64,000 bases of DNA from Mobula hypostoma (taxonomy: Eukaryota), in the NCBI RefSeq assembly GCF_963921235.1, contig NC_086118.1:47058001-47122000 (forward strand), given 5' to 3'. Each line of letters starts with the position of its first letter. Position 1 is the first letter of the stretch. Below the pieces are notes generated by a model. The model saw only the letters and a program-made list of their open reading frames with translations, did no database searches and was not told where the DNA came from. The position numbers were made by a program, and so were the translations under genes. Positions 1 through 25,998 of this stretch are shown here, piece after piece.

Positions 1-1520
1 AACCTGACTGAGGGTGACAAGCAAGGAAATCCAGAATCCAATTGCACAAGGGGGTATTGAGTCCCAGGTCTTGGAGTTTACTGATTACTTTTGAGGGGAT
101 GATGCTATTAAATGCTGAGCATCTTGATGTATGCATCTTTGCTGTCCACATATTCCAGGGTCGTGTGAAGAGCCAATGAGTTGGCATCTGCTGTAGATCC
201 ATTGTTTTGATGGCAAATTGGAGTAGATCCAAGTCGCTCCTCAGACAGCAGCTGGTATGCTTCAACATCTGCCTCTCAAAACACTTCTTCATTGTGGATG
301 TAAGTGCCACTGGGCGATAGTCATTGAGACAGGTTACCAGGCTCTTCTTGGGCACTGATATGATTGAAGCCTGCTTGAAGCAGGTGGGTACCACACATGC
401 TGGAGTGAGAGGTTGAAGATGTCCGTGAATGCACCAGCCAGTTGTTCAGCGCAGGTCTTCAGGACTCAGCCAGGTACTCCGCCTGGATCAGATGCTTTCC
501 TTGGATTCACTCTCTTGAAGGCAGCCCGCACATCATCTTCAGATATTGTGACCAAAGGATCATTGGGAGACATGGGGGTATGCAATGGTTCCTTCCTGTT
601 CTGGTGGTCAAGGCGAGCGTAGAAAGCATTGAGCTCATCTGGAAGTGAAGCTCTGCTGTTTCCTATGTCGCAAAATTTAACTTTATAGGAAGTTATGGCA
701 TTCAAACCCTGCCACAGCTGTTGAGCATCCCTCGTTGATACCAGTCTAGTCTAGAATATTCACTTCGCCCATGAGATAGCTTTCCGGAGATCATACCTGC
801 ACCTCTTGTAGCATTCTTGATCTCGAAACTTGAATGCCTCTGATCTGGTTCTCAGCAAATTCTTATGAGCATATTCCATTGTTCACCCAGGGCTTCTGAA
901 CGATTTTGTGGATACACACTCATCTACAGCTGTTTTAATAAAGTCTATTACGACTTTGGTGTAGTCATTCAGGTCCTCAGATGAGTTCTTGAACATCATC
1001 CAGTCCATTGACTCAAGGCAATCCTGTAACTGCTCCTCTGCCTCCCGGGACCACCTCTTAGTTGTCTTGATCTCTGAAGCCTTGCTCTTTAGCCTCTGTC
1101 TGTGTGCAGGCAATAGGAGTACTGTCAAATGATCCAACTTGCCAAAATGTGGTCTTGGAAAGGAACAATAGGCATTCCTTATCGTAGTCTAGCAGTGGTT
1201 TAGTGTGATGGGACCTCTGGTTCAACAGGTTACATGCTGGTGATAAATGGGCAGGGTTTTCTTCAAACAGGCCTGGTTAAAGTCACTGACTATGATTTGA
1301 AATGCATCCGTCTGGGCTGTTTCTTGCTTGCAGACAGCATTGTTCAGTCGCGCAAGTGCTTGCTTATAATCGGTCACTGGTGGTATGTAACCTGCAGTTA
1401 GGGTCACGCATGAGAACTCTTGAGGCAAATAGAATAGTCCACATTTAATTGTTAAGGTGTTCTAAGTCAGGGGAGCAAGAAGCCAACATAACCCCAATGT
1501 CTGGCTGAAAACACACTCTG
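1..1520 (-). mobile_element. Rex1/Babar-type LINE remnant (APE endonuclease to start of RT), frameshifted
   Basis: Minus-strand ORF pieces: YIPP...IIVSDFNQACLKKTLP..HQHVTC (APE), DH..VLLLPA..QRLK, LPDELNAFYAR..KASDPGGVPG, DLLQFA. Confidence 0.75.
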
Positions 1521-2074
1521 CCACATTTTTCCTAGTTGGTGGGGATCTCTGGTGATGGATTCTGCTTTCCGGCAACAGCATTTCATGTCGATATGTTCAA
1601 TGGTTGGAAGGGCTTTACCCGTGATGGACTGTGCTGTATCCACTACTTGTTGTAGAATTTTATGTTCAACTATTCATCAAGTTTTACCGGATTGGGAAAT
1701 AAATCAAATAAGGTGAAAATACAAATACTACACTTCTGACTTTGCGAAAGTTCATCTAGCTAACTCTGTTCTTCATTGTGACTATGCTATCCTTTCCAAT
1801 TTAATATTCAGATAAGATGAATGAAATATTCTTGCAGCTTGGCAAAATATTAGCATTAACTTAATGATGCTTTGAGGATTTTTTAAGTTAATGATTTACA
1901 AATGTTCATATTGTTAAAATATCACTATTGAGTGCAGTTTAAATGGTTCATTGTCAATTTGAACTTAGCAGAGTTTATGAAAATAACCAATGTGCAATGC
2001 ATTTTCATTCAGCATAGCTAAAAAAAACCTTGCATTATCAATTCTGTATTTATAATATTGTTCTAATCTTTCAG

Positions 2075-2183
2075 ATAAAACAAACAATCCTTGATGTTGA
2101 ATATCCTTTGATACAAAATGAATTGGCTGATATAGATTTTAAATTGGTTAAAGCAGAAAGACAGTTGTATTGGAATAGCCAAG
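2075..2183 (+). CDS. DNAH17: Axonemal dynein heavy chain (DNAH17-like), internal exon 1 of 15 in window
   Basis: ttttcag acceptor, GTATGT donor; IKQTILDVEYPLIQNELADIDFKLVKAERQLYWNSQ(G); 109 nt, phase 0 to 1, joins next exon in frame; resembles DNAH9/17 tail region (recall). Confidence 0.85.
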
Positions 2184-3494
2184 GTATGTTTTCTCCTAAC
2201 TCTACAAAAATACATGCTTTTATATCACAGTAATTGCAATCAGAAACAATAGTGAATGCTATTCTGTAAGTAAAGTAGTTCTAGTTAATAATTTTAATGA
2301 TAATGATGCACATTCCATGTGATTCAATTTTCAATTAAATTTTGTTACACTGATTTTGTATGTTCAAATTGTCTGAAATGCATTCAGGAGTTGAACAATA
2401 ATGTCACCCGGACAGAATATGAGCAGTAAAACTGCTGGAATTTGATGTAAGGATTTAGTAAAGTTTGTGTTACTGTAAAAGAGCATTTTGATGAAGTTCC
2501 TTCCTTGCAAATACTCAAGAAATGTTGAGGCAACAAATAGTTAACTTTGCAACTGAACTCTTATCCATAAGGGTTTAAGAAGAAGAGAATAGTGTGGAAG
2601 TTTTTGTTATGTATGTTGCTTTACAAGAGATTGCAGCTGCGAAGGTGTGCACAGCTTTTTGCCAGTGGGGGGAGGGGAGAATTGTTGCTTGCTGCCGCTT
2701 ATGCATGGGAGGGGTGGAAGCTGGGGGGGTACTTTGAGGTTCTTACATTTATCTGTTGTTCATTCTTTGGGGCAGTTCTCTGTTTTCGTGGATGTTTGTG
2801 AAGAAAAAGCATTTCAGGATGTATTTTATGTACATTTCTCTAACATTAAATTGGACCTTTGAACCTTTGAACGTCCTAATCTGGGCCCACCAAAATGCCA
2901 CTGATTCAACAGGCGTTTAATAGACTGCTTGAAAGAGAATTATCTAATATTAGAAATGCTTTAATGTCATGTGACTTACTTACACTGAAATCCTGGTTTG
3001 AACTCCTGTTGCCTGAGTAGAGTTAAAATGAACAGAAAGATTTCCCCCACATATAGAATTTAATGCTCTTCTATTGTTCTTTATTTTTTGAGCAAGAGCA
3101 GAACATCTCAAGTGTGTGTTTGTGTGGGGGGAGCGGCGGGGTGGGTGGATGTTGCACTTAAATATGCAGAACTGATTCCAGATTGGGGATTTATCTGTAA
3201 TATCATTTGGAACATCATTTGGAGAGTTGTCTGTGGGGATCAGCAATAATTTTTCAATCTGGTTAAATCTGATGAATAGTTCATTTTGAATCTAAAGAAG
3301 TGGAAACTGTTAAGCTTAAAAAACAATCCTTATTTATCAGTCAGGATTATTTCAAATGGACTATAAAGGGATGCTTTAGATGTTCTTCTATCTTTAATTT
3401 TCTTTTCCTATCATCAAGCAGAACTCTAAAGAAAATGATGGTGTCATGATGCGACATTTATAAGGGCAGAAGTTGCACAGCAATTTTCCCTGAC

Positions 3495-3645
3495 CCTTCC
3501 TTGGTCCAGTATGCTTTCCAACCAAAGGCACAGAGGTTGGCACCACCACCTGCTTGTCCTCTGTTAGGCAAAGATTCATGGTGTTCGGCATGAAGATAGC
3601 TATGGTATCATCCAGTACCTTTCTTAATTTGCTTTCATATGGATT
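3495..3645 (-). repeat. Orphan copy of the Gypsy/RBM25 chimeric junction (matches 6735..6885)
   Basis: Ungapped 151-bp match to 6735..6885, about 19 mismatches by eye (~87%); encodes KLRKVLDD...KQVVVPTSVPLVGKHTGP. Confidence 0.85.
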
Positions 3646-4329
3646 TGGTGTAAATGGGTGCTTGATGGTTGGGGCCTTTTTCTGTGCTGCATGTCTCAAT
3701 AACTCTAAGACCTTTAACGTGGGCCTTGCAGTAAGATGATCTGGGAGATATATAACCAACTCTTGGAGGAAAACCCATTCGTGCTAAGCAGACTATGCTA
3801 TAGACCACCAAGTCATCAAGGGTGGACAATTTGCTTCATTAAAAAAAAAGTAACAAGAATTGTTTCTGAATGTGGAGAGCTTCAGCGTAAAAGGCCATGG
3901 TATGGTATAAAGATTAATTTTTGGTTTAATAATTTAATGCATACATGTTCACAACATTAATGATTATGGTTGTTGAAGGAAAATTGTAGAAGGTACTTGG
4001 GACCAGGTTGGCTAAGTTTGATTACAACTATTTCCTTGAGAATGGATTGGTTGGATCAAGCAGCAAATTCCTTATGAAAGTAAAATCTAATGTTTTCTTG
4101 GTTCTTCTTCTTCGGCAGTTTCTCAGTATCAACGTTGACTTGCTTTTACTTTGGTGTTGGCTACTGAAGCCAACATGGAAGCTGCAGAACTTCCACAAAT
4201 GGGTAGGCAGGTTGGTAGTAGATGCACCGGTGCACTCCTTACCTGCTAAGTACAGCTTCTCATTAGCAAAGCCTTGAGGTTCTGAGTACCAACCTGACAT
4301 GGGTCAAGCATTCGCTGGAATCAGTGGGA

Positions 4330-4640
4330 GTGTTGCACTTCTTAAAGGAAGGTTTGAAGCCATCCTTGAATTTTTATCATTGCCTACCTGATAATTTCTT
4401 CCCTTGACAGAGCTTGGAGTAAAGTGTCCGATGTCAGGTAACATGAATTATGTGGCTTGCCTAGCATAACTGACTGAAAGTAAGCAGACTGTCAATGCTG
4501 GGAAAGTGGTTTAACTTCCAAAAACTTTGGAGGATTTTTCAAAGATATAGTTGTTGGTATTTTTTCAGTTGCTTGAGATGCCTGCTGCAAGTAGTCCAGG
4601 TCTTGAAAGCATAGGGTGATCACTGTGGTCCTGTAAGCAG
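4330..4640 (-). mobile_element. Old RTE/BovB-like LINE fragment (continues at ~5520..5577 and 8523..8650, split by Rex1 and Gypsy insertions)
   Basis: Joining the flanks of the Gypsy TSD restores an RTE-like post-RT segment on the minus strand (SLLSAKTDI..QCASTA..LKKR); highly degraded. Confidence 0.5.
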
Positions 4641-4647
4641 TTTAATT

Positions 4648-5515
4648 CTGCCATAGTTGGATGCATCAGCAAGGGAGATGAGGCTGAGTACAGGGCTACG
4701 GTGAGAAACTTTGTCACATGGTGTGAGCAGAATTATCTGCAGCTTAATGTGAAAAAGACTAAGGTGCTGGTGGTGGACCTGAGGAGGGCTAAGGCACCGG
4801 TGACCCCTGTTTCCACCCAGGGGGTCAATGTGGACATGGTGGAGGATTACAAACACCTGGGAATATGAATTGACAATAAACTGGACTGGTCAAAGAACAC
4901 TGAGGCTGTCTACAAGAAGAGTCAGAGCCGTCTCTATTTCCTGAGGAGACTGAGGTCCTTTAACATCTGTCGGACGATGCTGAGGATGTTCTACAAGTCT
5001 GTGGTGGCCAGTGCTATCATGTTTGCTGTTGTGTGCTGGGGCAGCAGGCTGAGGGTAGCAGACACCAACAGAATCAACAAACTCATTTGTAAGGCCAGTG
5101 ATGTTGTGGGGATGGAACTGGACTCTTTGACGGTGTTGTCTGAAAAGAGGATGTTGTCCAAGTTGCATGCTATCTTGGACAATGTCTCCCATCCACTACA
5201 TAATGTACTGGGTGGGCACAGGAGTACATTCAGCCAGAGACTCATTCCACCGAGATGCAACACTGAGCGTCATAAGAGGTCATTCCTGCCTGTGGCCAGC
5301 AAACTTTACAACTCCTCCCTTGGAGGGTCAGACACCCTGAGCCAATAGGCTGGTCCTGGACTTATTTGCATCTGGCATAATTTACATATTATTATTTAAT
5401 TATTTCTGGTTTTATATTGCTATATTTATACTCTATTCTTGGTTGGTGCAACTGTAACGAAACCCAATTTCCCTCGGGATCAATAAAGTATGTCTATCTA
5501 TCTACCTATCTATCT
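4648..5515 (+). mobile_element. Rex1/Babar LINE, 5'-truncated 3' end
   Basis: ORF 4977..5348 (LRMFYKSVVASAIMFAVVCWG...RSFLPVASKLYN); AATAAA followed by (TCTA)n tail; close relative of 11763..13560. Confidence 0.85.
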
Positions 5516-5577
5516 AATTTTCAAAATTCCTTTTCTTCAAGCAATCAAAAACTGTGCTGGCACATTGAGGTGCTGAT

Positions 5578-5777
5578 TGTTATGTTTTGTAACTTCAAAA
5601 CATTAAATTAATTCAATGGAAGATGTGGGGGTCCAGAATACAGGTGTAACTTCATCTTTACTTTAAGCAAAGTGCGTATGTATTGCACGGTAACATGACG
5701 ATGTATGCTATTAACGTAATTTTACACATAACCTGTATTAATTATTTAAATGAACAAGAATGCTTAATCAAACTATA

Positions 5778-5790
<13 letters not shown>
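5578..5790 (-). repeat. 3' LTR of Gypsy element (partly eroded by a microsatellite)
   Basis: Direct repeat of 8275..8480 (tgttatgttttgtaacttcaaaacattaaa...aagaatgcttaatcaaac), roughly 80% identical by eye. Confidence 0.85.

Positions 5791-5822
<32 letters not shown>
5777..5822. repeat. (TG)n(TA)n microsatellite
   Basis: atgtgtgtgtgtgtatatatatat... run. Confidence 0.95.
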
Positions 5823-5823
<1 letters not shown>

Positions 5824-6144
5824 TGTCTGCTTAGCTATAAACTCCAACTCAATAGAGAATGCATCTCAACTATATACACAGTTTACAATATAATACAACT
5901 ACTATGTACAGACATCCATAACATAGTAAATTTTTAAATTGCCCCATGCAGGCTTAAAAATTTAATCACTGTGGAGGATTTTTTACTCTTAAGATAATGC
6001 CTTTAGTGCCAAGGGGATCACTCTGTTTGGCAAGTGAATCTTGTGGCTGTCAAAACAATCTCAGGGTTCTGAGACCTCCTCCATGGTGGTTGTAGGAGTT
6101 GATTTTGAGACTGCAAGAAGTAGTTCTGTCAGCTCCGGACACCT

Positions 6145-6789
6145 TTCTTCTCCCTTTCTCTCTCTGAACCTACTTTGTTCCCTTTCTTTTTCTTACACCC
6201 CTTCTCTCTCTCACATCCACATTCTTTCTCTCCATCTCTTCCCTCTTTTTTCTTCTTCTATTTTGTATATCTTGGTCTTGGGAAGGTCCATTTAGTTTAC
6301 TGGTGTATTTTCTTATTAATTCTTCTCTGCTCCCTTTATGATCTGATCTCTCTGTTGGTTTCCTCATCTACAACATCAGACAAATCCTCTGTTTTCTTAT
6401 TTCCATAGACTCCTTTCTTTTTGCTGATCAGTTCTTCCAGCTGGGTGTTGGTCTTGCATCTACTTTTACAAGCAGCTTTTTGTCTTCCACTTGAAGTTCA
6501 TGCAGTAATCTTAATGCACACAGAGTAAATTCCGGTCTTTGTAGTCATAAAAGCCAAATGTTTGCAACTTTCCTGAAGGTCTTTGAACTCTGCTCCAGCT
6601 TAAATCAAAGTCACATTTTGGAAGTAACTACTTGATTAACATATCAGAGAATTTCTCAGATATATTGCCTACAAAAACTGTTGTAGTCAGACCAATGCTT
6701 TTGTCACTTTCACACTTCCTTTGAGCAGCATGCTCCTTCTTTGGTCCAGTGTGCTTTCCAACCAAAGGCACAGAGGTTGGCACTACCAC
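6145..6789 (-). pseudogene. RBM25: Processed (intronless) RBM25 fragment: RRM domain through start of the RE/RD-rich region, with stop and frameshifts
   Basis: Minus-strand translation across frameshifts: VVVPTSVPLVGKHTGPKKEH...TTTVFVGNISEKFSDMLIK*LLPKCDFDLSWSRVQRPSGKLQTFGFYDYK/PEFTLCALRLLHELQVEDKKLLVKVDA...DEETNR/DQIIKG/EELIRKYTSKLNGPSQDQD, then purine-rich ER-like repeats; collinear with vertebrate RBM25 N-terminus (recall). Confidence 0.88.
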
Positions 6790-8274
6790 CTGTTTGTCCA
6801 CTTTTGAGCAAAAGTTCACGGTGTTCGGCATGGAGACAGTCGTGCTATCATCCAGTACCTTTCTTAATTTGATTTCATATGGCTTCATTAGAGGGGATGT
6901 TGCATGCAAATTGTGGTTCCATCTCCAATCAAGCAATGGTTATCTCAGCCAGTCATTCACCTACAATGCTGATCCTTCTGTTTTCACCACATATAAGCTG
7001 AATGTGGCTTGTTGGTTGTTGTATTTCACAGTTATGAATGCTATTTCTACAGGAGGTTCCTTTTCTCTGTGGGATATCTGCAGACTTCAGTTTTGTATCT
7101 TTGAAATGCCATTCAAACTCACTTTGTGGAATGATGGAACTAACTGAATCAGTGTCTAATTCCATTTTAATTAATTTGCTATTAATTTCTTGCTTAAGCC
7201 ATATTGCTTCTCTGTTGTTAATTTCAAGGTTGCACAATCCTGTGTCACTCTCATCATTCTCAGATTTTTCATCAACAGCATGCAGATTAGTGCTCTTTTT
7301 GAAACTGCAATTTGATATTTTTAGCATTTTATGTTCTCTGATCAATCCATTTATTTTTGTCTGCCCAACATACACTTTGTATATGTCTTTGTTGTATTTT
7401 CTGCAAGTTTCACCTTTAAATCTGAATTTTTTGGTGTATGAGTCCCTGCCACAACAGTAACACAATTTGTTTGGCCAGGCCAGTTTCTGTTTAGACAATG
7501 CAATTTTGTTTATGCTCACTTTCATTCCTGACTGCAACTCAGATACATCTCTGTCTGCAGTTTCCATTGAAACAGAAATTTCTACTGCTCGTTTGAATGT
7601 ACGTTGTGCTTCATTTAGCAGCTGTTTTAGAATGCTTTCTTTTAAGATTCCACAAACTAATTGATCTCTTAAGGCCATTATCAGCCTGTAAATGCTCAGA
7701 CAATATCTTCAATTCTGCCATGTATGCCGAAATGGACCCCTTCCTTTTGATTCCACTTATGAAACCTAAAGCGTTCTGTAATCAACAGTGGCTTGGGTTC
7801 TTAGTGTTCCTGCATCACTTTACAATAGCAGCAAAGCTAATTTCTAATAGTTTGGTGGGAGCAGTCAAACTTCAAAGCAAACTGTATGCCTTTAAACCTA
7901 ATGCACTTAGCAAAATTGGCACTCACTTCTCACTGACTATTTCATTTGCTTCAAAATACTGTTCCAATAGTTCAGTATACATGAGCCAATTACCCAACGT
8001 GTAATCAAATTCGGAAATCTTTTCAATGTAGCTAGCCATTTCTGATTTTTTAAATGACTGTTATCACCTGATACTCATCTTTTATAAACCACGAATTCTT
8101 CAGTTTATGGCCTTTTTAAAAAAAACCTTGATTGTGTCTTCCCTTCAAAGAGCACACGCTGCTCTATTTCAACATTGTTCTCCTGTGTTTATTTTATTTT
8201 ATTTCAAATGTCTCACTGCACCGTAGCAGGTGCATAGCCATGTTAGGTTCCTTTTAGGAATACCTCGTTGCCAG

Positions 8275-8522
8275 AGTTATGTTTTATAACTTCAAAACAT
8301 TAAAATAATTCGAAGGAAGATGTGGGGAATCCAAAATATGGGTGTAACATTGTCTTTACTTTAAGCGAGGTGCGCATTATCAAGTGGTAGCATGATGACA
8401 TATGCAATTAATATATTTTTACACACAACCTGCAATTAATTATTTAAATGAATAAGAATGCTTGATCAAACAATACATATACAAGATTACTCAGATATTA
8501 TTGTAATATGAAATACACAACA
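8275..8522 (-). repeat. 5' LTR of Gypsy element
   Basis: Matches 5578..5790; adjacent to PBS; ends ACA next to TSD. Confidence 0.85.
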
Positions 8523-9165
8523 CTGATGTCTGTCTTTGCTGAGAGAAGGCTTCTGAGGTGGTAAGTAGGCCATGCTTCCAATGCTACATTGTGAATCTTT
8601 AATACTGGAGAGTAGTGTGATACACTGGAGGCAGGTTGGGAGAGGAATGTTACCTGATTAGGCAGATTTATCAATCACAGTTGATAATTATTTGAAATAT
8701 AGTAAATGGGGTCTTGCAATAACAACTGAATACTTGTTCAAGTATTTACTAACTACTAGTAGGTTGTGGTCTCATTGGCAATGTATAAATTGAATTTGAA
8801 ATAATTTAAGCAGAATTTAGCCAGTAATTAAAATAACCATTGTATTAAAATGAACAACATTCATGAGGTGAGATTTTGTATGATTGCTGGCCTCTGCAGT
8901 TGTAAATCATAAAGAATGGCTTATGTGATTCTAGAGTTTCAGTAAAGGATGATGAACATCCCTAGGTCAGAGCTGTCTTTTGGACTTTATTAGTTTTGGT
9001 GTTGGTGGTTGCACTCAAGTGAGTTGTGAAGTGGTTTGGCAAATAGCAGTTGTTATTTAAAGTTGCGACCCAATATGTTTTGGCTGTTTGCCTTTGTCAT
9101 AAAAATTATAATCAATATTGCTAATTGTGTGATAATTATTTCTTTGTGCTTCTGTTTCTTGTCAG

Positions 9166-9269
9166 GTGTTTGGGAATATATTCAGGAGACAAGAAGTATG
9201 TTATATGATCTTGAGCACAGAATTCAGCAAAGCAAAGACAATGTAGAAATCATGCGTCTCATAATGTTG
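9166..9269 (+). CDS. DNAH17: Dynein heavy chain exon 2 in window
   Basis: Pyrimidine tract + cag acceptor, GTGAGT donor; GVWEYIQETRSMLYDLEHRIQQSKDNVEIMRLIML; 104 nt. Confidence 0.87.
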
Positions 9270-10141
9270 GTGAGTACTGCTAGAAAAAGTTTCCATCCAC
9301 TAGTCCTGAAATTGAATTGCCCCCAACTAGGCACCCTCTTATTGTTTGGCGGCTTAGTAAAACTTGATCAGAAAAGATGCTACAATACAGTGAATGACTG
9401 GAAGGTTCAGTTCATTATCAATAAAATCTAGTTCAATATGTGTTTTGAAGTGGCAGTTTTAATTATTAGGACATTTATTGTCATTAACCTGAAGAAAATG
9501 GTTACTTCACTTTCCAGAACTTCAGTTTTGATTCAGTCAGGTTAACATTTTCTGACACAGACTTAATCTGACTAAACCAAAAATGTCTTTTTTAGAACTG
9601 ATAGATTTTGATTCAGAACATTATCTAGCAAATGTGAACTACTTAATCAAGCTGCATAAACCAATAGCAATGGAGAAAGAAGACTAATAACACAATGCAA
9701 ATGACTAACTGCTTCTAAGTATTTCCTGGCAGGGTTACTATTGCTGCTGTATATTTGAATAAAGCAAGACCATGAATAGCAAAATCTATTATCGCCTTAA
9801 AAAAACTTGTAGGGAGATAAAAGAAATGCACTTTTAACTTCTTAAAGCCAGCTGTCATTTTCATATATAACAAGCAGCTCAGATGCTTGGACCCAGAAAA
9901 AGATGGATAAATAACAAAAACGATGCCATGTTCTTTGCAGAATCTGTGCACAGGCACTTTAGAGCTGCATCTGGCTTTTCAATTATTTTAAATTTTCCAT
10001 GCAATTTTGGTAAAGGAGAATTATGCATTTGCTGTTTCCATTTCAGCCATTACAGTATTCCTCATTTTGTTTAATACACTTGTAGATATTTTTAACCTAT
10101 TGATTCATATTTTGATATCTAGGCAACTTTGGTGATGCTAA

Positions 10142-10760
10142 ACACAAGAGATTTTGCGAATACTGGAAATCTTGAGCAACACAAAATGGTAGAGTAACTC
10201 AGCAAGTCAGGCAGCACCTATGGAGAGGAATAAGTAGTTGATATTTTGGGCTGAAACCCTTAATCAGGATTGGAAAGGAAAGGGGCAGAAGCCAGAATAA
10301 GAAGATGGGGGGGGGGCAGGGGATAGAGTACAAACTGGCAGGTGATTGGTGAAACCAGGTGAGGGGGAAGGTGGGGGGTGGGAAGGGTGATGAAGTAAGA
10401 AGCCAAGAGGTGATAGGTGGAAGAGGTAAAGGGCTGAAGAAGAAGGAATCTGATAGAAGAGGACAGTGGACCGTGGAAGAAAGGGAAGGGGGAGAGGCAA
10501 CAGAGGTTGGTGTTGGGGAGGTGGGAAGAAGAAGAGCGGTGAGAGGGTAACCAGAATGGAGAAGAGAAAACAAGAGAAAGGGAATGAGGGGAATTACCAG
10601 AAGTTAGAGAAATCAATGATCATGCCATCAGGTTGGAGGCTGAATAGCATTTTTTATAAGTGACAGGGAGTGAAGATATATAGACAAGATACCTGTGAGA
10701 GTCAGTAGCTTTGTAAAAGATACCAGTAGATAGTCTGTCTCTAGGGATTGAGACAGAGAT
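10142..10760 (-). mobile_element. Penelope-like element 3' tail/pLTR, degraded
   Basis: Reverse complement of the LQPDGM..DFSNF end and purine-rich tail seen at 35440..35920; decayed hammerhead motif at ~10235..10270. Confidence 0.7.
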
Positions 10761-11762
10761 ATTGAGAAACAGAATATAGAAAAGTGTTTCCCTTGATTGC
10801 TAATCATTAATCAGATAACTGATAGGCATAAAATACCAGCTTTTTGCAACGAGTACCACCTGGATCAGTCAACTGACAGCTTAGAGTGGAAGGGAAATTG
10901 GTCCCAAATCACTCTTGTAATATTTTCTTTTGCAACTATTTTAACCAAACAAATACAATTAACTGAGAAGAACATACGCCATAGAAACAGGAGTTGAGCA
11001 TTTGGGACTTGCTCCACCATTTAGTACAATTGTGGTTGTTTGTTTATCTAAGAGATGCTTTATTGTACTAACCTTATATCCCTGGATTTCATTAATATCC
11101 TAAACTACATTGTTCTCTGTCATGAACATACTAATTAACTGAACTTTCAAACCTCTTTTGGGAGTGAATTCCAAGGATTTGCTATTTGATCAATGAAGAT
11201 ATTTCTTCTCATTGCACTCATGAATAGACAACTCTTATGTTGAGTCTGTGATCCTGGTTCTCAACAGCTCAGAGAGAGGAAACATCATCCCTACACTGTT
11301 AAGTACTGAGTGAATTTTACATTTTTAAACTACCTCTCACTTTTCTAAACTCCAGAGACATCTCATAAGACAGTCTTCCCTTCTCAGGAATTTGATGATT
11401 GCACTCTCATTCCATCCATTTTTAGGCTGGCCTGTACAAGAATTTGAGAGCAAAATCAGGGATATCTTGATCTAGCTTTTCTTTATATAGCTGCAGCAAG
11501 ATGTCCCTAATTTTGCCCTCAAATTCTTGTGCAATAATGGCCAACTTATTATCTGTTCTATTTGCTTGCCTGTTCCTGCATGTTAGTTAATGATCCACTG
11601 GACAAAAGGATATAACAATTATAACTTAGGCTACTGGTTAAACCAAAATAGCTGATGTATACATGATTAAGTTCATAAATATCTGAATTAGAAAATTATT
11701 TGGGATGAAGTTTATATAGAGCTAAATAAAGATAATTTGATCATTTTTCATTAGTACAGGCA

Positions 11763-13560
11763 TCATAGTCATAGTCATACTTTATCGATCCCGAGGGAAA
11801 TTGGTTTTCGTTACAGTTGCACCGTAAATAATTAAATAGTAATAAAACCATAAATAATTAAATAGTAATATGTAAATTATGCCAGATGGACATAAGTCCA
11901 GGACCAGCCTATTGGCTCAGGGTGTCTGACCCTCCAAGGGAGGAGTTGTAAAGTTTGATGGCCACAGGCAGGAATGACTTCCTATGACGCTCTGTGTTGC
12001 ATCTCGGTGGAATGAGTCTCTGGCTGAATGTACTCCTGTGCCCAACCAGACCGTTATATAGTGGATGGGAGATATTGTCCAAGATGGCATGCAACTTGGA
12101 CAGCATCCTCTTTTCAGACACCACTGTCAGAGAGTCCAGTTCCATCCCCACAACATCACTGGCCTTACGAATGAGTTTGTTGATTCCGTTGGTGTCTGCT
12201 ACCCTCAGCCTGCTGCCCCAGCACACAACAGCAAACATGATAGCACTGGCCACCACAGACTCGTAGAACATCCTCAGCATCGTCTGACAGATGTTAAAGG
12301 ACCTCAGCCTCCTCAGGAAATAGAGACAGCTCTGACCCTTCTTGTAGACAGCCTCAGTGTTCTTTGACCAGTCCAGTTTATTGTCAATTCGTATCCCCAG
12401 GTATTTGTAATCCTCCACCATGTCCACACTGACCCCCTGGATGGAAACAGGGGTCACCGGTGCCTTAGCCCTCCTCAGGTCCACCACCAGCTCTTTAGTC
12501 TTTTTCACATTAAGCTGCAGATAATTCTGCTCACACCATGTGACAAAGTTTCCTACTGTAGCCCTGTATTCAGCCTCATCTCCCTTGCTGATGAATCCAA
12601 CTACGGCACAGTCATCTGAAAACTTATGAAGATGACAAGACTCTGTGCAGTAGTTGAAGTCCGAGGTGTAAATAGTGTAGAGAAAGGGAGACAAGACAGT
12701 CCCCCGTGGAGCCTCAGTGCTGCTGATCACTCTGTTGGACACACAGTGTTGCAAGCAGATGTACTGTGGTCTACCAGTCAGGTAATCAAGAATCCATCAC
12801 ACCAGGAAAACATCCACCTGTATTGCTGTCAGCTTCTCCCCCAGCAGAGCAGGGGGGATGGTGTTGAACGCACTGGAGAAGTCAAAAAAACATGACCGTC
12901 ACAGTGCTCGCTGGCTTGTCCAGGTGGGCGTAGACATGGTTCAGCAGTTAGAAGATGGCATCCTCAACTCCTAGTCGGGGCTGGTAGGCGAACTGGAGGG
13001 GATCTAAGTATGGCCTGACCATAGGCCGGAGCAGCTCCAGAGCAAGTCTCTCCAGGGTCTTCATGATGTGGGAGGTCAATGCCACTGTTCTGTAGTCATT
13101 GAGGCTGCTGGGGTGCGGCGTCTTCGGCACAGGGACGAGGCAGGACGTCTTCCACAGAACAGGAACCCTCTGGAGACTCAGGCTCAGGTTGAAGACATGT
13201 TGAAGTACTCCACATATCTGAGGGGCACAGGCTTTGAGCACCCTGGTACTGACACCATCGGGGCGTGCAGCCTTGCTTGGGTTGAGATGTTTCAACTGTC
13301 TTCTCACCTGTTCAGCTGTGAAGCCCACCGTGGTGGTTTCGTGTGGGGAAGGGGTATAGTCATGAGAGCAGGGTGGGGGACTGTGAGGAGGGGTAGGAGG
13401 GGAGAGTGGAATATGTGTTGGTTGGGGGCCAACAACAGGTGAATCATGTGGGGGATGGGCAGGGGCCACAGTGTCAAATCTGTTAAAGAACAGGTTAAGT
13501 TCGTTGGCCCTGTCCACACTGCCTTCAGCTCCTCTGTTGCTAGTTTGCTGGAACCCAGGA
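11763..13560 (-). mobile_element. Rex1/Babar LINE, 5'-truncated, RT region near intact
   Basis: ORFs 12948..13517 (PVLWKTSCLVPVPK..LNDYRTVALTS..DPLQFAYQ) and 11909..12754 (PRGTVLSPFLYTIYT..KFSDD..LQLNVKKTKE); short (ACTATG)n tail at 11763..11780. Confidence 0.9.
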
Positions 13561-13777
13561 TCTCAATAATACTCTAATCACTTTAGATTTATTATTATTA
13601 ATACATATTATGGAGCAATATAATAATTCATATTAATTATACATAATTAATTGAATATAATAAATTAATATTAATGTATTTTCTATTATTTGCATTATGT
13701 GTTGCATAATAAAGTTAAGGAGAAATGTTTGGAGCAACTTGGATTTACCTAATTGGCCAATTAAAAATGGTGACAAT

Positions 13778-13935
13778 ATAGAACCATAGAACACTACAGC
13801 ACAGAAAACAGGCCATTCAGCCCTTCTAGTCTGTGCTGAAACAGTATTCCACTAGTCCCAATGACCTGCATCCAGTCCATAACCCTCCAGACCTCTCCCA
13901 TCCATGTACCTATCCAATTTATTCTTAAAACTTAT
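13778..13935 (-). mobile_element. CR1 LINE 3' tail fragment
   Basis: Reverse complement of a CR1-type end (..gggctgaatggcctgttttctgtgctgtagtgttctatggttctat). Confidence 0.65.
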
Positions 13936-14395
13936 CTTCACTAAGTCTTGATTCATCTCCTATCATAAGCAACCTCACGTTTAAATTCTCTCTTATGTAT
14001 ATGGCTACTTTTCCACCTTTATATTCTTGCCTGTCTTTCCTAAGTACATCCTTTAATATTATATTCATCAACATCCTCTGAGGTCAGCCAGGTTTCAGTT
14101 ATTGCTATTATATCATACTTATATGCATGTGCATATGATTCCAGCTTACTTATTTTATTCTTAATACTTACTTCTTGGATTTATAGAGGCCATCCTTAGA
14201 CTATTACTAATGTTTTTCATCTTAATCTGACCCATTTTTATATTTTTGAAGCCTTTTTATGTCCTACTATGTTATTCTCCACTAAGGTGTTTAAACAGTT
14301 GAGCCTAGCCTGTTCCAAGTTCCCTGCCCACCGTTCCCTAGCCAATGCATGATTTTGGTTGGATTGTGATAATTTTTTTTGAGTTTTTTTAACAG

Positions 14396-14536
14396 GAATG
14401 GTCAACGAACCCCTTGTTTGAAAGAGGAGGCAACAAAAAAGATTCATATTTGGACTTTGATGCCAGACCACAAATGTTAAACAAAAGGTACTCAGTTGTT
14501 CGCGAGGATGGAGTAAAACTTCATGCATTATTGGAG
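14396..14536 (+). CDS. DNAH17: Dynein heavy chain exon 3 in window
   Basis: ttttttaacag acceptor, GTAAAA donor; EWSTNPLFERGGNKKDSYLDFDARPQMLNKRYSVVREDGVKLHALLE; 141 nt; WSxNPLFER and LNKRY are DNAH17-like; absent from ORF track. Confidence 0.87.
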
Positions 14537-16624
14537 GTAAAATAGGAAGTATTCATTGTTTACATTGCCCTTTGTAAATGACCAGCATTGTAGATTGCAG
14601 AAAATTCAGGACTTTTATCTGTTTTGAATGTATTGAAATAGTCAGTGTAAATGTAACAAACGTATGCATGAGGGTTAGCTAAAGATGGAGCAGAGTTGTG
14701 TAGTGATAAAAAGAAGGAAATAGGCATGTTAATGGTATGATTATGTAGTCATTTGCCCTTCCCTTTGGTGCCCCCAGCAAGCTATGTTTGGCTTCCTCAA
14801 TGTGCTGCTTCAGAGCACAATGTATGAAAACACTAGAAGTGTTAACACAACTATGCCAGTTATACCAGTCTCTACATCACTAGCATCTCTAATATTAGCT
14901 CTTTAAATTGTCTGTCAGTCCTACTAGTGGAGCAGGAATATCCTCCAACCAAATAGTAGGGAGATGAAAGTCATTATCTTTAATTTATCTTGCAAATTTC
15001 CATTGCCATGTATTTAATTAAAACAGTGGTGTGCAATCCATTACTCTGAGAGCACTTAACAATATGGATGCTTCGAGCTTTTCCCAGGGCTAAAAAGTCT
15101 AGAAATTAAGAACACAAGCTAAGGAAAATCTGTGAATCATTTAGAACAGTGGTGAATTTCTGTCACTCAGAGATGTAAATATTTTGAATTTCCTATCCAG
15201 GCGAGTTGAGGGTCTTTCAGAGTATAAACCCTGCTACCCACCTATTGACTGCATTCTTTATGTTGATTGATCCAGATTAATTGCACCCTTGGTATCAGAT
15301 ATTAGACTGAGTTTAGCTAAACTTACATGACTGTGAGATCAGTAAGAACTTTTTTTTCCTGTAACATCAACAACTCTGATCTTTAGTTTTTCTGCTCCAG
15401 ACAATTTTTGCTTCATATTACATCAGTATGTATTTTAATATACTGTGTTCTTACCTAACCTGCCTAATTTTACCCTCATGAAGGTATCCAAAATTCTCCT
15501 GAGGATCCATTTATGAAAACTCTGTACATGATGTCTTATATTAGCTCTCAACTAAAGAAACCACAATCTTTATCTTGGTTTTCAAATTCCCCCTGGCCCT
15601 TACATATTTCTTATGTCCTCTACAACTACATTCTCTGATATATTTGTCTGGCTCTTGATCAGCTCAGATTTAAAATATTTTATTTATAAACATGCTTTTA
15701 GGTGTTTTAGACTTTCCCCTTCAAAGTGCTCTACAAATCTTACCTCTATTCAACCTTCGCCCACACCTCAGCGAGTTCCACGTTCGCCATGATGCTGAAC
15801 TCTTCTTCCGCCGGCTCCGTCTTCGAGCCTACTTCTTCAGCAAGGACTCTCCCACCCTCACCTATGACCCCTTCTCCCATCTTCTACCCTCCTCCTCTTC
15901 ATGGACACCCCGCTCTGGTCTTCTGCCAGCTCTGGATCTCTTTATTGCTAACTGCCGATGGGACATCAACCGTTTCAACTTTACCACACCTTGTTCCCAT
16001 TCCAACCTCACTCCTTTGGAGCGCTCTGCTCTCCACTCCCTCTGCACTAATACTAACCTTACTATAAAACCTGCCAATAAGGAGGGGTGCTGTTGTAGTC
16101 TGGTGTACTGACCTCTACCTTGCCAAGGCACAGTGACAACTCGCGGATACCTCCTCTTATTTACCCCTCGATCATGACCCCACTAAGGAGCACCAGGCCA
16201 TTGTCTCCCACACTATCACCAGCTTTATCCGCTCAGGGGACTCCCATCCATTTCTACCAACCTTATAGTTCCCACATCCCGCACTTCCCGTTTCTACCTC
16301 CTGCCCAAGATCCACAAACCTGCCTGTCCAGGTAGACCTATTGTCTCAATTTGCTCCTGCCCCACCGAACTCATTTCTGCATACCTCGACACTGTTTTAT
16401 CCCCCTTGTTCAATCACTTCCTACCTATGTTCTCACGCTTTGAAATTTTTCGATGATTTTAAGTTCCCTGGCCCCCACCGCTTTATTTTCACCATGGATG
16501 TCTAGTCCCTATATACTTCCATCCCCCACCAGGAAGGTCTCAAAGCTCTCCACTTCTTTTTGGATTAGATCTAACCAGTTCCCCTTTACCACCACTCTGC
16601 TCCGTCTAGTGGAATTAGTCCTTA

Positions 16625-16936
16625 AAGGCATCCATTAGTCTTGCGAGACCATGGATCTGTGCCTGGAAAGTCTTCACTCTCCAGGGCGCAGGCCTGGGCA
16701 AGGTTGTATGGAAGACCAGCAGTTGCCCATGCTGCAAGTCTCCCCTCTCCACGACACCAATGTTGTCCAAGGGAAGGGCATTAGGACCCATACAGCTTGG
16801 CACCAGTGTCGTCGCAGAGCAATGTGTGATTAAGTGTCTTGCTCAAGGACACAACACATGTTGCCTTAGCTGGGGCTCGAACTCACGACCTTCAGGTCGC
16901 TAGTACAATGCCTTAACCACTTGGCCACATGCCCAC
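16625..16936 (-). mobile_element. tRNA-derived SINE (CORE-like body) inserted in Penelope RT
   Basis: 12-bp TSD AATTAGTCCTTA at 16613..16624 and 16937..16948; minus-strand A box TGGCCAAGTGG, B box GAGTTCGAGCC, then GTGTCCTTGAGCAAGACACTTAA. Confidence 0.9.
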
Positions 16937-18393
16937 AATTAGTCCTTATTCTCAATAATTTCTCCTTTGGCTCCTCCCACTTCCTCCAAACTAAAGGGGT
17001 AGCCATGGGCACCCATATGGGTCCCAGCTATGCCTGCCTTTTTGTTGGCTTTGTGGAACAATCCACGCTCCAAACCTATACTGGTATCTGTCCCCCAGTT
17101 TTCCTTCGCTGCATCAACGACTGCATTGGCGCTGCTTCCTGCATGCATGCTGAGCTCATTGACTTCATTAACTTTGCCTCCAACTTTCACCCTGCCCTCA
17201 AGTTTACCTGGTCCATTTCCAACACCTCCCTCCCCTTTCTAGATCTTTCTGTCTCTATCTCTGGAGACAGCTTATCTACTGATGTCGACTATAAGCCTAC
17301 GGACTCTCACAGCTATCTGGACTATTCCTCTTCTCACCCTGTCTCTTGCAAAAATGCCATCCCCTTCTCGCAATTCCTCCGTCTCCGCCGCATCTGCTCT
17401 CAGGATGAGGCTTTTCATTCCAGGATGAAGGAGATGTCCTCCTTTTTTAAAGAAAGGGGCTTCCCTTCCTCCATCATCAACTCTGCTCTCAAATGCATCT
17501 CTCCCATTTCATGCACATCTGCTCTCACCCCATCCTCCCGCCACTCCACTAGGAATAGGGTTCCCCGTGTCCTCATCTACCACCCAACCTGCCTCCGGGT
17601 CCAACATATAATTGTCCGTAACTTCCGCCACCTCCAACGGGATCCCACCACCAAGCACGTCTTTCCCTCCCCCCCCTGCTTTCCGCAGGGATCACTCCCT
17701 ACGCGACTCCGTTGTTCATTCGTCCCCCCCATCCCTCTCAACTGATCTCCCTCCCGGCACTTATCCTTGTAAGCGGAACAAGTTCTACACATTCCCTTAC
17801 ACTTCCTCCCTCACCACCATTCAGGGCCCAGACAGTCCTTCCAGGTGAGGCGACACTTCACCTGTGAGTCGGCTGGGGTGATATACTGCGTCCGGTGCTC
17901 CAGATGCGGGCTTTTATATATTGGCGAGACCCAACGCAGACTGGGAGACTGCTTCACTGAACACCTACGCTCTGTCCGCCAGAGAAAAGCAGGATCTCCC
18001 CGTGACCACACATTTTAATTCCATGTCCCATTCCCATTCTGATATGTCTATCCACGGCCTCCGCTACTGTAAAGATGAAGCCACACTCAGGCTGGAAGAA
18101 CAACACCTTATATTCCATCTGGGTAGCCTCCAACCTGATTGTGTGAACACTGACCTCTAACATCCGTTAATGCCCCACCTCCCCCTCGTACCCCTTCCGT
18201 TATTGCCCATCCTCTGGGCTACCCCCTCCCCCTTTCTTTCTCCTTGGGCCTCCCGTCCCATGATCCTCTCATATCCCTTTTGCCAATCAACCGTCCAGCT
18301 CTTAGCTTCATCCCTCCCCATCCTGTCTTCTCCTATCATTTTGGATCTCCCCCCCTCCCTCTTTCAAATCTCTTACTAGCTCTTCTTTCAGTT

Positions 18394-18429
18394 AGTCCTG
18401 ATGAAGGGTCTCAGCCCGAAACGTCGACT
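18394..18429 (+). ncRNA. Minimal type I hammerhead ribozyme motif (Penelope tail)
   Basis: AGTC-CTGATGA-A-GGGT(CTCA)GCCC-GAAA-CG-TC-GACT: stem I AGUC/GACU, core CUGAUGA/GAAA, palindromic ACGU stem III, GUC cleavage triplet. Confidence 0.8.
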
Positions 18430-18754
18430 GTACCTCTTCCTATAGATGTGTGTTGCTGTCTATTATCAACCTATTGATCACCTTCTGTCTCAGTATCAAA
18501 TTTTAATATAATGGTCCTGACTAACACTTTGTAACATTTTGTTATAAAAAAAAGTACTGTGTGGATACAAATTCTTTCTATTTTTTCAATGCTAAGATTG
18601 TTTCTGATTTCTGATGTAAAATGAATAATATAGATATCAAATCACATTAATGACTTAGTAATGAATGATTACAAAATTTGCAGATGATGCTTAAATTGCC
18701 GGCAGTGCCAATAGTTGGTAAGATAGTCTAAGGCTACAGAATGATATGATCAGC

Positions 18755-23627: not shown

Positions 23628-25998
23628 AGTCCTCCCACACTTAGGCAGTCTACTGGCAGTCTAAGTGTTAACTGGAAACACTTCAAACAGTAATTCAATA
23701 TATATTTAGCTGCTAGCAGAGAGGGAGTGACTGATGAAAAACTGAACGTGCCTATATTTCTGCATGTAATTGGTGAAGATGCTTTGGACATCTGTAACAG
23801 CTTTCAAGTTGATGAGACAGCTTTTACGTTGGACATTCTGATGACAAAATTTGAGAAATATTTTGTCCCAAATAAAAGCATCACGTTTTAGAGATATGTC
23901 TTTTTCCTGTAACCAGAAACAAAGTGTTAGCTTTGACTAATACGTAGCTGAGCTTCACACACTGAGTACGACCTGTGAACTTGGAGATTTGAGAAACTCA
24001 CTAGTTAGAGACAGAATAGTTTGTGGAATTCCAGATAATGGATTGAGAGAAAGACTTCTGCATGAAAAAGATTTGACACTGGGACAAGCTATGAATACAG
24101 TACGTGTAGGGCAGCGTGGATCACACGAGCGCAAGCTAAGGAGCTGCAAAGAGCAGAAACGGCAGTGCATGCTGTGAAAACAGAGGGGCAGAACACAAGG
24201 AATTTCCCAAAGCAGCAGCTAAGCAAAGAGGAAGGCTGAAACAGCAAATGTGGAGGTAAACACATTCCAAAGATGTGTCCTACGTAGGGATAGTCATGCA
24301 ATAATTGTGGAAAGAAGAATCATTTTGCAAAGTACCGCAAAGCTGGGCCTACCAAGAGAAAGGTGCACATGTTGATGGGGAAATGGAGGAATTCTTTGTG
24401 GATTCTCAACGGACTGCTGGTGCTGGTAAAACAGAATGGGTTATTCCAGTGGCTGTGAATGAGACAGTAATTCCATTCAAACTTGACACCAGACCCAGGT
24501 GAATCTGTTATCCATGGATGATTACAAGACTCTTACAGTGAAGAACAAGATTTATCTAGTGAAATTAAAAGTGACAGGCTACACTGGAGAGAACATTCCA
24601 GTTAAAGGGGCTGTATAGTGACCTTCAAACACTCGGGGCATCATCTGTAAGTCACAGCTACTGATTGTAGAAAAGAGTATAGCCAGTATTAGGTTTGAGT
24701 GCATATGAAAAGCTCAACCTGGTGAAAAGAGTTTTCAAAGAGTCTGTCTGGATTCACAAACTAAAGATAACCATACAACACTCATGTAAGAGCATGCAGA
24801 TGTCTTTGAGAGGCTTTGATGCTTACCTGGTGTACACAAAATTCATATAAATAAAACAGTGACTTCTGTTGTCCATGCATGTGGGAAAGTTCCATTTCCA
24901 CTTAGAGACAAACTTACACGGGAACTAGCAGGCATGAAATGGATGAAAATTGAAGAACCAACAAATTGGGTGAGCTTACTGGTCATTGTGAAAAAGAAAA
25001 ATGGAGCATTGCGGATATGTCTAGACCCAAGAGATCTCAATAAAGTCATTGAGAGAGAGCATTTTAAATTGTCAACATGGGAGGAGTTCATGTCCTGGTT
25101 TGTAGGTGCCAAGTGGTTTAGCAAGCTCGCTCATCATCTGGGTTTTTGCAGATGAAGCTTAATGAGGAAAATTTGAGACTGTGCACTTTTAACATACCAC
25201 AGGGAAGGTATCACTTTCTTTGGTTACCATATGGGATTCTGTCCACACCAGGTCTACCATAAAACCATCCACATAATTCCCATACACGCTGGGAAAATAT
25301 ATGTTTGCTGCTGTTGCATTGTCTCAAGCATTCAACAAGAAAGAAATGAGTGACCATGAGGTTAATGCAGATATGAGCCCTATGTTGACATGATTGTCAC
25401 CTCCCTTCCAATATCTCCCGATAGAAGAGAGCAGATTAGGAAAGCAGCAGCATCGATAAAACAATGAAAGAACTCAAATATACAAAGTGGAAATGATGGC
25501 TAGCAGCTAAGAATGACTGTCCAATATATATTCAGGATTATTAGGCATGCAGAGCTGAACTGTCAGTAGTGAAAGATAGAGTCTTCAAAGGAAACTGGTA
25601 TGTGATTCCACTGCAGCTACATAAGGAAATGCTCCTAAAGATGCACAAAGGGCATCTTGGTGAGGAAAATTGTAAACGCAGAGCTCATGAAGTTTTGTGC
25701 TGGCCAAGAATGAACCAAGACATCACAGACCACTGCTTCATGTGAAATATGCCTTACCTACAGACCAAAGCAGCAAACAGATTCGGTTACACCACACCCT
25801 GTACTAGGCCGTACTTCAAAGTTGGAGTGGATTTGTTTGTAATGGGAGGAGTCATATTGTTGTAACAGACTACCTTTCCAAGTACCCAGAGGTTGCAACA
25901 CTGCAATCAACATCCAATAAAGCAGTCATCGCCTTCCTGAAAATTCTGTTTGCAAGGCATAGAGTTCCATATGAGGTAGTATCAGTCCAAAATTTGCC

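Follow-up and report, generated by a model that had tools for sequence, protein, structure and literature searches.

A decayed Gypsy-type LTR element in a dynein intron carries a fragment of spliced RBM25 RNA and probably belongs to an old, amplified family

The stretch of DNA that we analysed (the window, 64,000 nucleotides) contains, on its minus strand, a decayed Gypsy-type LTR element at positions 5578-8522 (Table 1). The exons on either side of it, both on the plus strand, match consecutive residues of dynein axonemal heavy chain 17 (DNAH17), which indicates that the element is intronic and antisense to the dynein gene, as the initial annotation had proposed. The geometry is thus the correct one for intronic RNA antisense to RBM25, the host gene represented in the element, and such RNA is possible. 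A splice-signal scan of the plus strand over 9166-62662, a region that starts with the exon matched to DNAH17 (9166-9269), yielded some eight more candidate exons of a dynein heavy chain. The window also holds, on its plus strand (23878-25128), the decayed gag-pol remains of an unrelated Gypsy-like element, in which RT-like sequence is kept (tblastn with the fish Gypsy Gag-Pol protein P0009, E about 5e-8), and two inverted repeat copies that are 93% identical (4649-5497 and 11771-12608), which we take to resemble a LINE. One of these copies lies between the element and a second, shorter fragment that is described below.

Table 1. Position, strand and basis of the features of the element and of its surroundings, in window coordinates
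Feature	Positions	Strand	Basis
Host exon (axonemal dynein heavy chain) preceding the intron	2075..2183	+	PDB DNAH17 residues 734-762, E 4e-4
Isolated second copy of the Gypsy-RBM25 5' junction, in the same intron	3495..3645	-	87.4% identity to 6735-6885
Left target-site duplication copy, CTGAT	5573..5577	.	Sequence
3' LTR, alignable part	5578..5777	-	82.6% identity to 8276-8475
TA/CA microsatellite in place of U3 start and polypurine tract	5778..5829	-	Comparison with other copies
Internal retrotransposon sequence on the 3' side; likely 3' untranslated region and C-terminal integrase tail	5830..6149	-	Highly repeated in runs X1, X5 and X9
Purine-rich stretch, likely RBM25 RE/RD repeat region	6150..6229	-	84-96% purine per 25 nt; not alignable
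RBM25 exon after the RRM, ends in lysine-rich motif, frame shifts	6230..6401	-	Piecewise alignment to P0008
RBM25 exon encoding the C-terminal RRM half, with a stop and frame shifts	6402..6561	-	Borders from P0015, P0016 and P0018
RBM25 19-codon RRM exon	6562..6618	-	Alignment to P0008
RBM25 exon with RRM start, one stop	6619..6789	-	Protein alignment
16-codon block of shark RBM25 transcripts, joined as in isoform X2	6790..6837	-	P0007, P0008
5' junction zone, fits both the upstream RBM25 exon's last codons and the Gypsy linker	6838..6846	-	P0008 and P0009 alignments overlap
Aspartic protease and protease-RT linker, stops and one frame shift	6847..7200	-	tblastn with P0009; Atlas
gag, broken by stops and frame shifts	7201..8039	-	tblastn with P0009; Atlas cluster
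PBS-like motif just inside the 5' LTR	8263..8273	-	Position
5' LTR	8275..8522	-	Sequence, LTR alignment
Right target-site duplication copy, CTGAT	8523..8527	.	Sequence; organisms A, B and C have contigs across the LTR-flank border
Next host dynein exon	9166..9269	+	PDB DNAH17 residues 765-792, E 1e-3

The outer LTR ends are TG and CA, and the 5-bp target duplication is present on both sides. On self-comparison of the window, the LTR pair (5579-5777 against 8276-8475) aligned over 201 nt (E 1e-49), with a K2P distance of 0.19, or of 0.16 without CpG sites. The initial annotation had described a complete element. Its outer ends, target duplication, two LTRs, PBS-like motif, gag and protease were indeed found, but the start of U3 in the 3' LTR and the purine tract have given way to the microsatellite and the 5' LTR does not finish in CA at its inner side, the inner ends of both LTRs being damaged. 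The PBS-like motif presumably matches the 3' end of a serine tRNA. In other copies, which we found in public sequencing runs (see below), the LTR ends at 8522-8524, and a direct joint from 8524 to 5830 with a short purine tract was present in each of three DNA runs, in 12 contigs per run. The last 8 nt before 5830, at the border of the damaged 3' LTR (5822-5829), occur again in the flank outside the 5' LTR (8525-8532), either by chance or through repair templated by the opposite end; an alternative LTR end at this match was discarded in view of the end position in the other copies.

The upstream part of the element was identified with the help of P0009, in which matches to the RVT_1, RVP and gag domains are found. 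P0009 aligned with the element from 8027 to the linker behind the protease, with 41%, 41% and 32% identity in three frames (E 6e-62), and the first Atlas match (0.93) led to a cluster in which 23% of the members carry Asp_protease_2 and 21% Retrotrans_gag. By contrast, the RT part of P0009 found no match within the element (best E 2.0), in agreement with the earlier view that the RT is gone. Downstream of the insert, the segment at about 5970-6150 had been labelled as the C-terminal tail of a Gypsy integrase, which we assume it to resemble; this label received no support from three database searches, as no integrase match was obtained for the segment, including in searches for the tail of the parent element. 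A Pfam search with nine ORFs and four further pieces of the window gave no significant match. The order of the parts is gag and protease upstream of the insert, and a repeated 3' part and an LTR downstream of it, with the RT missing. In each of the three DNA runs, the leader between the PBS and gag (8056-8267) had a contig depth of about 160-530, far below that of the other parts of the element, which suggests that it is much more diverged among the copies or that it marks a small subfamily.

The best match of the insert (among 6 matches out of 21 candidates) was an RBM25-like protein from a shark, Heptranchias perlo (66% identity, E 8e-29), which bears out its assignment to RBM25 and is suggestive of a cartilaginous fish; a PDB search with the RRM piece gave no match. 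Native exon borders were deduced from predicted proteins that read into introns, in a set of 43 matches, 41 of which were RBM25. Right after the first RRM exon, 32 of these 41 leave the gene, as expected for intron read-through, and 14 of the 41 enter this exon through an intron-end glutamine codon. The next border is marked by P0015 and the following one by P0016 and P0018, while P0001 and P0007 depart from RBM25 at the end of the exon corresponding to 6230-6401. The insert reads through four exon borders (at about 6790/6789, 6619/6618, 6562/6561 and 6402/6401) without introns, which indicates that the template was a spliced RNA, as had been claimed.

The extent of the RBM25 sequence had initially been set at 6145-6789. 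The presence of the RBM25 RRM, with frame shifts, stood up to analysis, but the similarity reaches to about 6846 rather than 6789. The additional sequence starts with a 16-codon block that is also carried by the shark isoforms X1 and X2 (P0001 and P0007) and by P0008 of the same cluster, and that is absent from the five bony-vertebrate-type proteins compared (P0002, P0003, P0005, P0016 and P0018). It would represent either an extra exon or an extension of the upstream exon. Its presence in native shark RBM25 disposes of the idea that 6790-6837 is unexplained or Gypsy-derived filler. The match with P0008 goes on past the block and takes in the three final codons of the exon before it, up to 6846. 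The element and the second fragment in the window both lack the 4 residues that X1 has beyond X2. Shark RBM25 thus appears to have, before the RRM exon, two acceptor choices that are 4 codons apart, and the retrocopy keeps the shorter joint. At the other end, the approximately 80 purine-rich nt at 6150-6229 likely derive from the RE/RD repeats of RBM25. The native protein has a 28-residue segment after the lysine-rich exon end (about 6230), and this segment could be aligned there in none of the three frames. The copy, which had been described as contiguous, is therefore intron-free, yet the native segment that precedes the RE-rich region is not matched in it.

The 3' junction lies near 6150. 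At the 5' junction, the Gypsy and RBM25 alignments share a few codons at 6838-6846, as microsimilarity between the two partners would give; this overlap was seen at the protein level. A 23-nt motif covering the junction had no match in viral contigs, and its single match in a bacterial-type contig (L001) was dropped as a chance event. The same 5' junction is present a second time in the window, in the fragment 3495-3645, which was missed in the initial annotation and was detected by self-comparison of the window (87.4% identity with the element over 151 nt, K2P 0.14). Of 29 residues of this fragment aligned with P0007, 23 are identical. It has neither an LTR nor an evident target duplication and may be what remains of another copy, or a patch derived from one by copying. 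A cluster of mismatches at the junction between the two window copies was considered as a sign of a second crossover and was not retained (P 0.16).

To assess repetition, contigs of four public runs, including the DNA runs X1, X5 and X9, were placed on 5830-9000 at 80% likeness. Summed over the RBM25 bins, the depth amounted to 1,734-18,573, 1,295-16,072 and 3,207-35,580 in organisms A, B and C, respectively, values that denote heavy repetition rather than a copy number and that count RBM25-like contigs regardless of LTR flanks. Depth in the gag-protease bins ranged from 3,478 to 146,875, while the flank, which is single-copy, had a depth of 12.4 in A, 11.3 in B and 12.8-14.6 in C. Position 6803, in the shark-type block, carried another letter in 59, 65 and 63 contigs of the three DNA runs. 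Among the 30 records listed (out of about 110,500 pieces in all), three (records 8, 17 and 25) bridged the 5' junction at 6846 with at least 31 letters on each side; records 24, 26 and 27 came near to bridging it and were left out of the count. Each of the three bridging records showed 42-45 differences in about 260 letters (about 83% identity), indicating that they are other copies. Together with the second copy of the junction in the window, they substantiate the multi-copy family that had been postulated. No bridging of the 3' junction was found among the 30 listed records. No RNA run was listed as holding the sequence. Contigs of X22, presumed to be an RNA run, were found over the element, but carry-over of DNA from a high-copy repeat explains them equally well, and X22 was therefore not used as a measure of expression.

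The border between the LTR and the flank was bridged by contigs of all three organisms (records 6, 22 and 30). There were 0 differences in A (X1 is possibly the window's own sample), 3 differences in B, and 34 differences plus 11 gap letters in 515 in C. The insertion is thus older than the split of A, B and C, and the distance between the two LTRs is about 3 times the difference between the flanks of A and C. The finding of diverged copies in three organisms, some of them bridging the junction, combined with this shared insertion, argues that the Gypsy-RBM25 hybrid forms an old, amplified family, as judged from sequence comparison.

The reading that we favour, with a probability of about 0.86, is that an RBM25 mRNA was packaged together with the RNA of the element, that two template switches occurred during reverse transcription, and that the product was then copied repeatedly in trans. 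The capture was likely a single event. The reverse transcriptase would have jumped from the 3' internal part onto the purine-rich region of RBM25, copied about 700 nt of it, and switched back in the protease-RT linker, one RBM25 segment being skipped during capture or lost afterwards. The product would have retained the LTRs, the primer site, the purine tract and the leader, which would have allowed its transcription, packaging and re-integration as a non-autonomous element. Conservation of these cis signals with loss of the RT points to copying in trans, likely with the enzymes of intact relatives. The sequence at 5578-8522 would then be one dead copy, in which the RT region has been replaced by a spliced RBM25 fragment, and which inserted in the dynein intron before A, B and C separated and has decayed since. 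The target duplication and the two LTRs enclose the whole chimera, consistent with the earlier proposal that it was inserted as one unit.

Another origin would be a Gypsy element that had lost the region from RT to integrase and received, at the deletion joint, a LINE-primed RBM25 cDNA with duplication of a 9-nt target, the composite being multiplied afterwards. The observation in its favour is a 9-nt word that is found near both junctions (6141-6149 and 6857-6865), with a P value of 0.017-0.055 on shuffling, although the size of the window used for this calculation was picked after the word had been noticed. The 5' copy of the word is preceded by TT, as is presumably the case in the target consensus of the LINE endonuclease, and the purine-rich 3' end of the insert could have permitted internal priming. 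However, this word, a candidate target duplication of the insert itself, does not directly abut the junctions. About 10 nt separate it from the RBM25 match, and the codons in this interval align with the Gypsy linker of P0009. Furthermore, the insert stops in the middle of the gene and no poly(A) was found at its 3' end, as had been expected if it were not a later, L1-type retrocopy. We consider this origin to be very unlikely.

An equally low probability is given to an insertion of the element within RBM25, followed by splicing of a read-through transcript onto an RBM25 exon and by a single recombination that generated the 3' end. This is the route of retroviral oncogenes, given in the background part of PMC4299795, and position 6789 is indeed an exon start preceded by CAG. 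Yet the block upstream of 6789 is itself native shark RBM25 and the similarity enters the last codons of the preceding exon, so that the 5' junction is not at a known exon start, which disfavours this route. As to the multiplication, copies might have arisen mainly by segmental duplication or gene conversion at the DNA level and less by repeated retrotransposition, as suggested by the LTR-less fragment 3495-3645, which is present 3.2 kb away from its counterpart within the element. This is hardly credible, since the flank at 8586-9000 is single-copy in three runs while the interior of the element is highly repeated, since, beyond the end of the LTR at 8276, contigs continue with unrelated letters (in each DNA run, 196-223 reads with an agreement of 0.36-0.37), and since the element has a target duplication of its own.

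The 5' junction is in frame from the protease side to the RRM in both window copies, as had been noted for the element, though an in-frame joint has a probability of 1/3 by chance and the two copies have a common origin. In P0009, gag, protease and RT are in one frame, and the source element could therefore have made a Gag-protease-RRM protein; a functional fusion of this type is possible. The copy at 5578-8522 has stops and frame shifts and does not present an open frame under purifying selection. Comparison of the window copies over 50 codons gave pN 0.121 and pS 0.146 (pN/pS 0.83), with 5, 8 and 6 mismatches at the three codon positions. This dN/dS-type comparison, which the initial annotation had suggested, thus gave no sign of selection and would fit neutral decay of the window copies, on little data and for these copies rather than for their source. 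No annotated Gag-protease-RBM25 fusion protein was found in a first search (1 match among 777 candidates), nor did any of the 43 matches of a second one (41 RBM25 and 2 unrelated repeats) extend over the protease side, both being weak negatives. We think it unlikely that the source kept an open Gag-protease-RBM25 RRM fusion and that the RRM, or the captured RNA, aided export or packaging, hence the large family. If true, this would be a retrotransposon using a splicing-factor domain taken from its host.

A 2026 preprint on vertebrate retrocopies reports 14,081 retrocopies in cartilaginous fishes (10.64898/2026.06.26.734816); RBM25 is not named in its main text. Our literature search (on RBM25 and on chondrichthyan Gypsy retrocopies), which covered papers and not the repeat libraries Repbase and Dfam, listed no paper on a Gypsy-RBM25 family. 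The mechanism of capture is known, while its occurrence on a large scale has seldom been described. Many copies of one captured mRNA provide a fossil record of a splice form of RBM25 in cartilaginous fishes and permit testing whether the RNA-binding domain, once captured, was ever of use to the element. Such copies can, in addition, mislead the annotation of RBM25 genes and the mapping of RNA.

In acutely transforming retroviruses and in maize Bs1, host coding sequence replaces genes of the element, and a helper is needed. Compared with these, the RBM25 element is devoid of env, and neither a growth effect nor an intact protein is shown here. Capture of host mRNA by crocodilian endogenous retroviruses has been described for CrocERV29 (KIT-ligand) and CrocERV31 (nectin3) (Chong et al. 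2014, PMC4299795). As in the cases described there, the capture is ancient, took place in a non-mammalian vertebrate, was followed by copying and is common to related species. CrocERV29 and CrocERV31 are described there as having 9 and 6 ORF-bearing copies, respectively, under purifying selection, with no domain lost or with env replaced (PMC4299795), whereas the RBM25 chimera is of the Gypsy type, has lost its RT region and has a broken insert, with no selection seen. The closest resemblance in structure is with the products of LTR-mediated retroposition, published for fly, mosquito, zebrafish, chicken and mammals (Tan et al. 2016, PMC5131818). As reported there, these contain a partial spliced mRNA placed between two segments of a single LTR element that are not contiguous in it, lack a poly(A) and a target duplication of their own, and often keep the coding sequence in frame; the RBM25 mRNA is likewise framed by a 5' and a 3' portion of a single LTR element, both in the same orientation. 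Re-mobilisation of such retrocopies as non-autonomous elements is also described (PMC5131818). The cases reported there have one or few insertion sites (18 for nine fly retrocopies) and are mostly young (PMC5131818), unlike the RBM25 chimera, which is old, common to three organisms and highly repeated. The latter would be a clear example, in a vertebrate, of an LTR-mediated retrocopy that turned into a large mobile family, and it would indicate the extent that re-mobilisation, as proposed by Tan et al., can reach.
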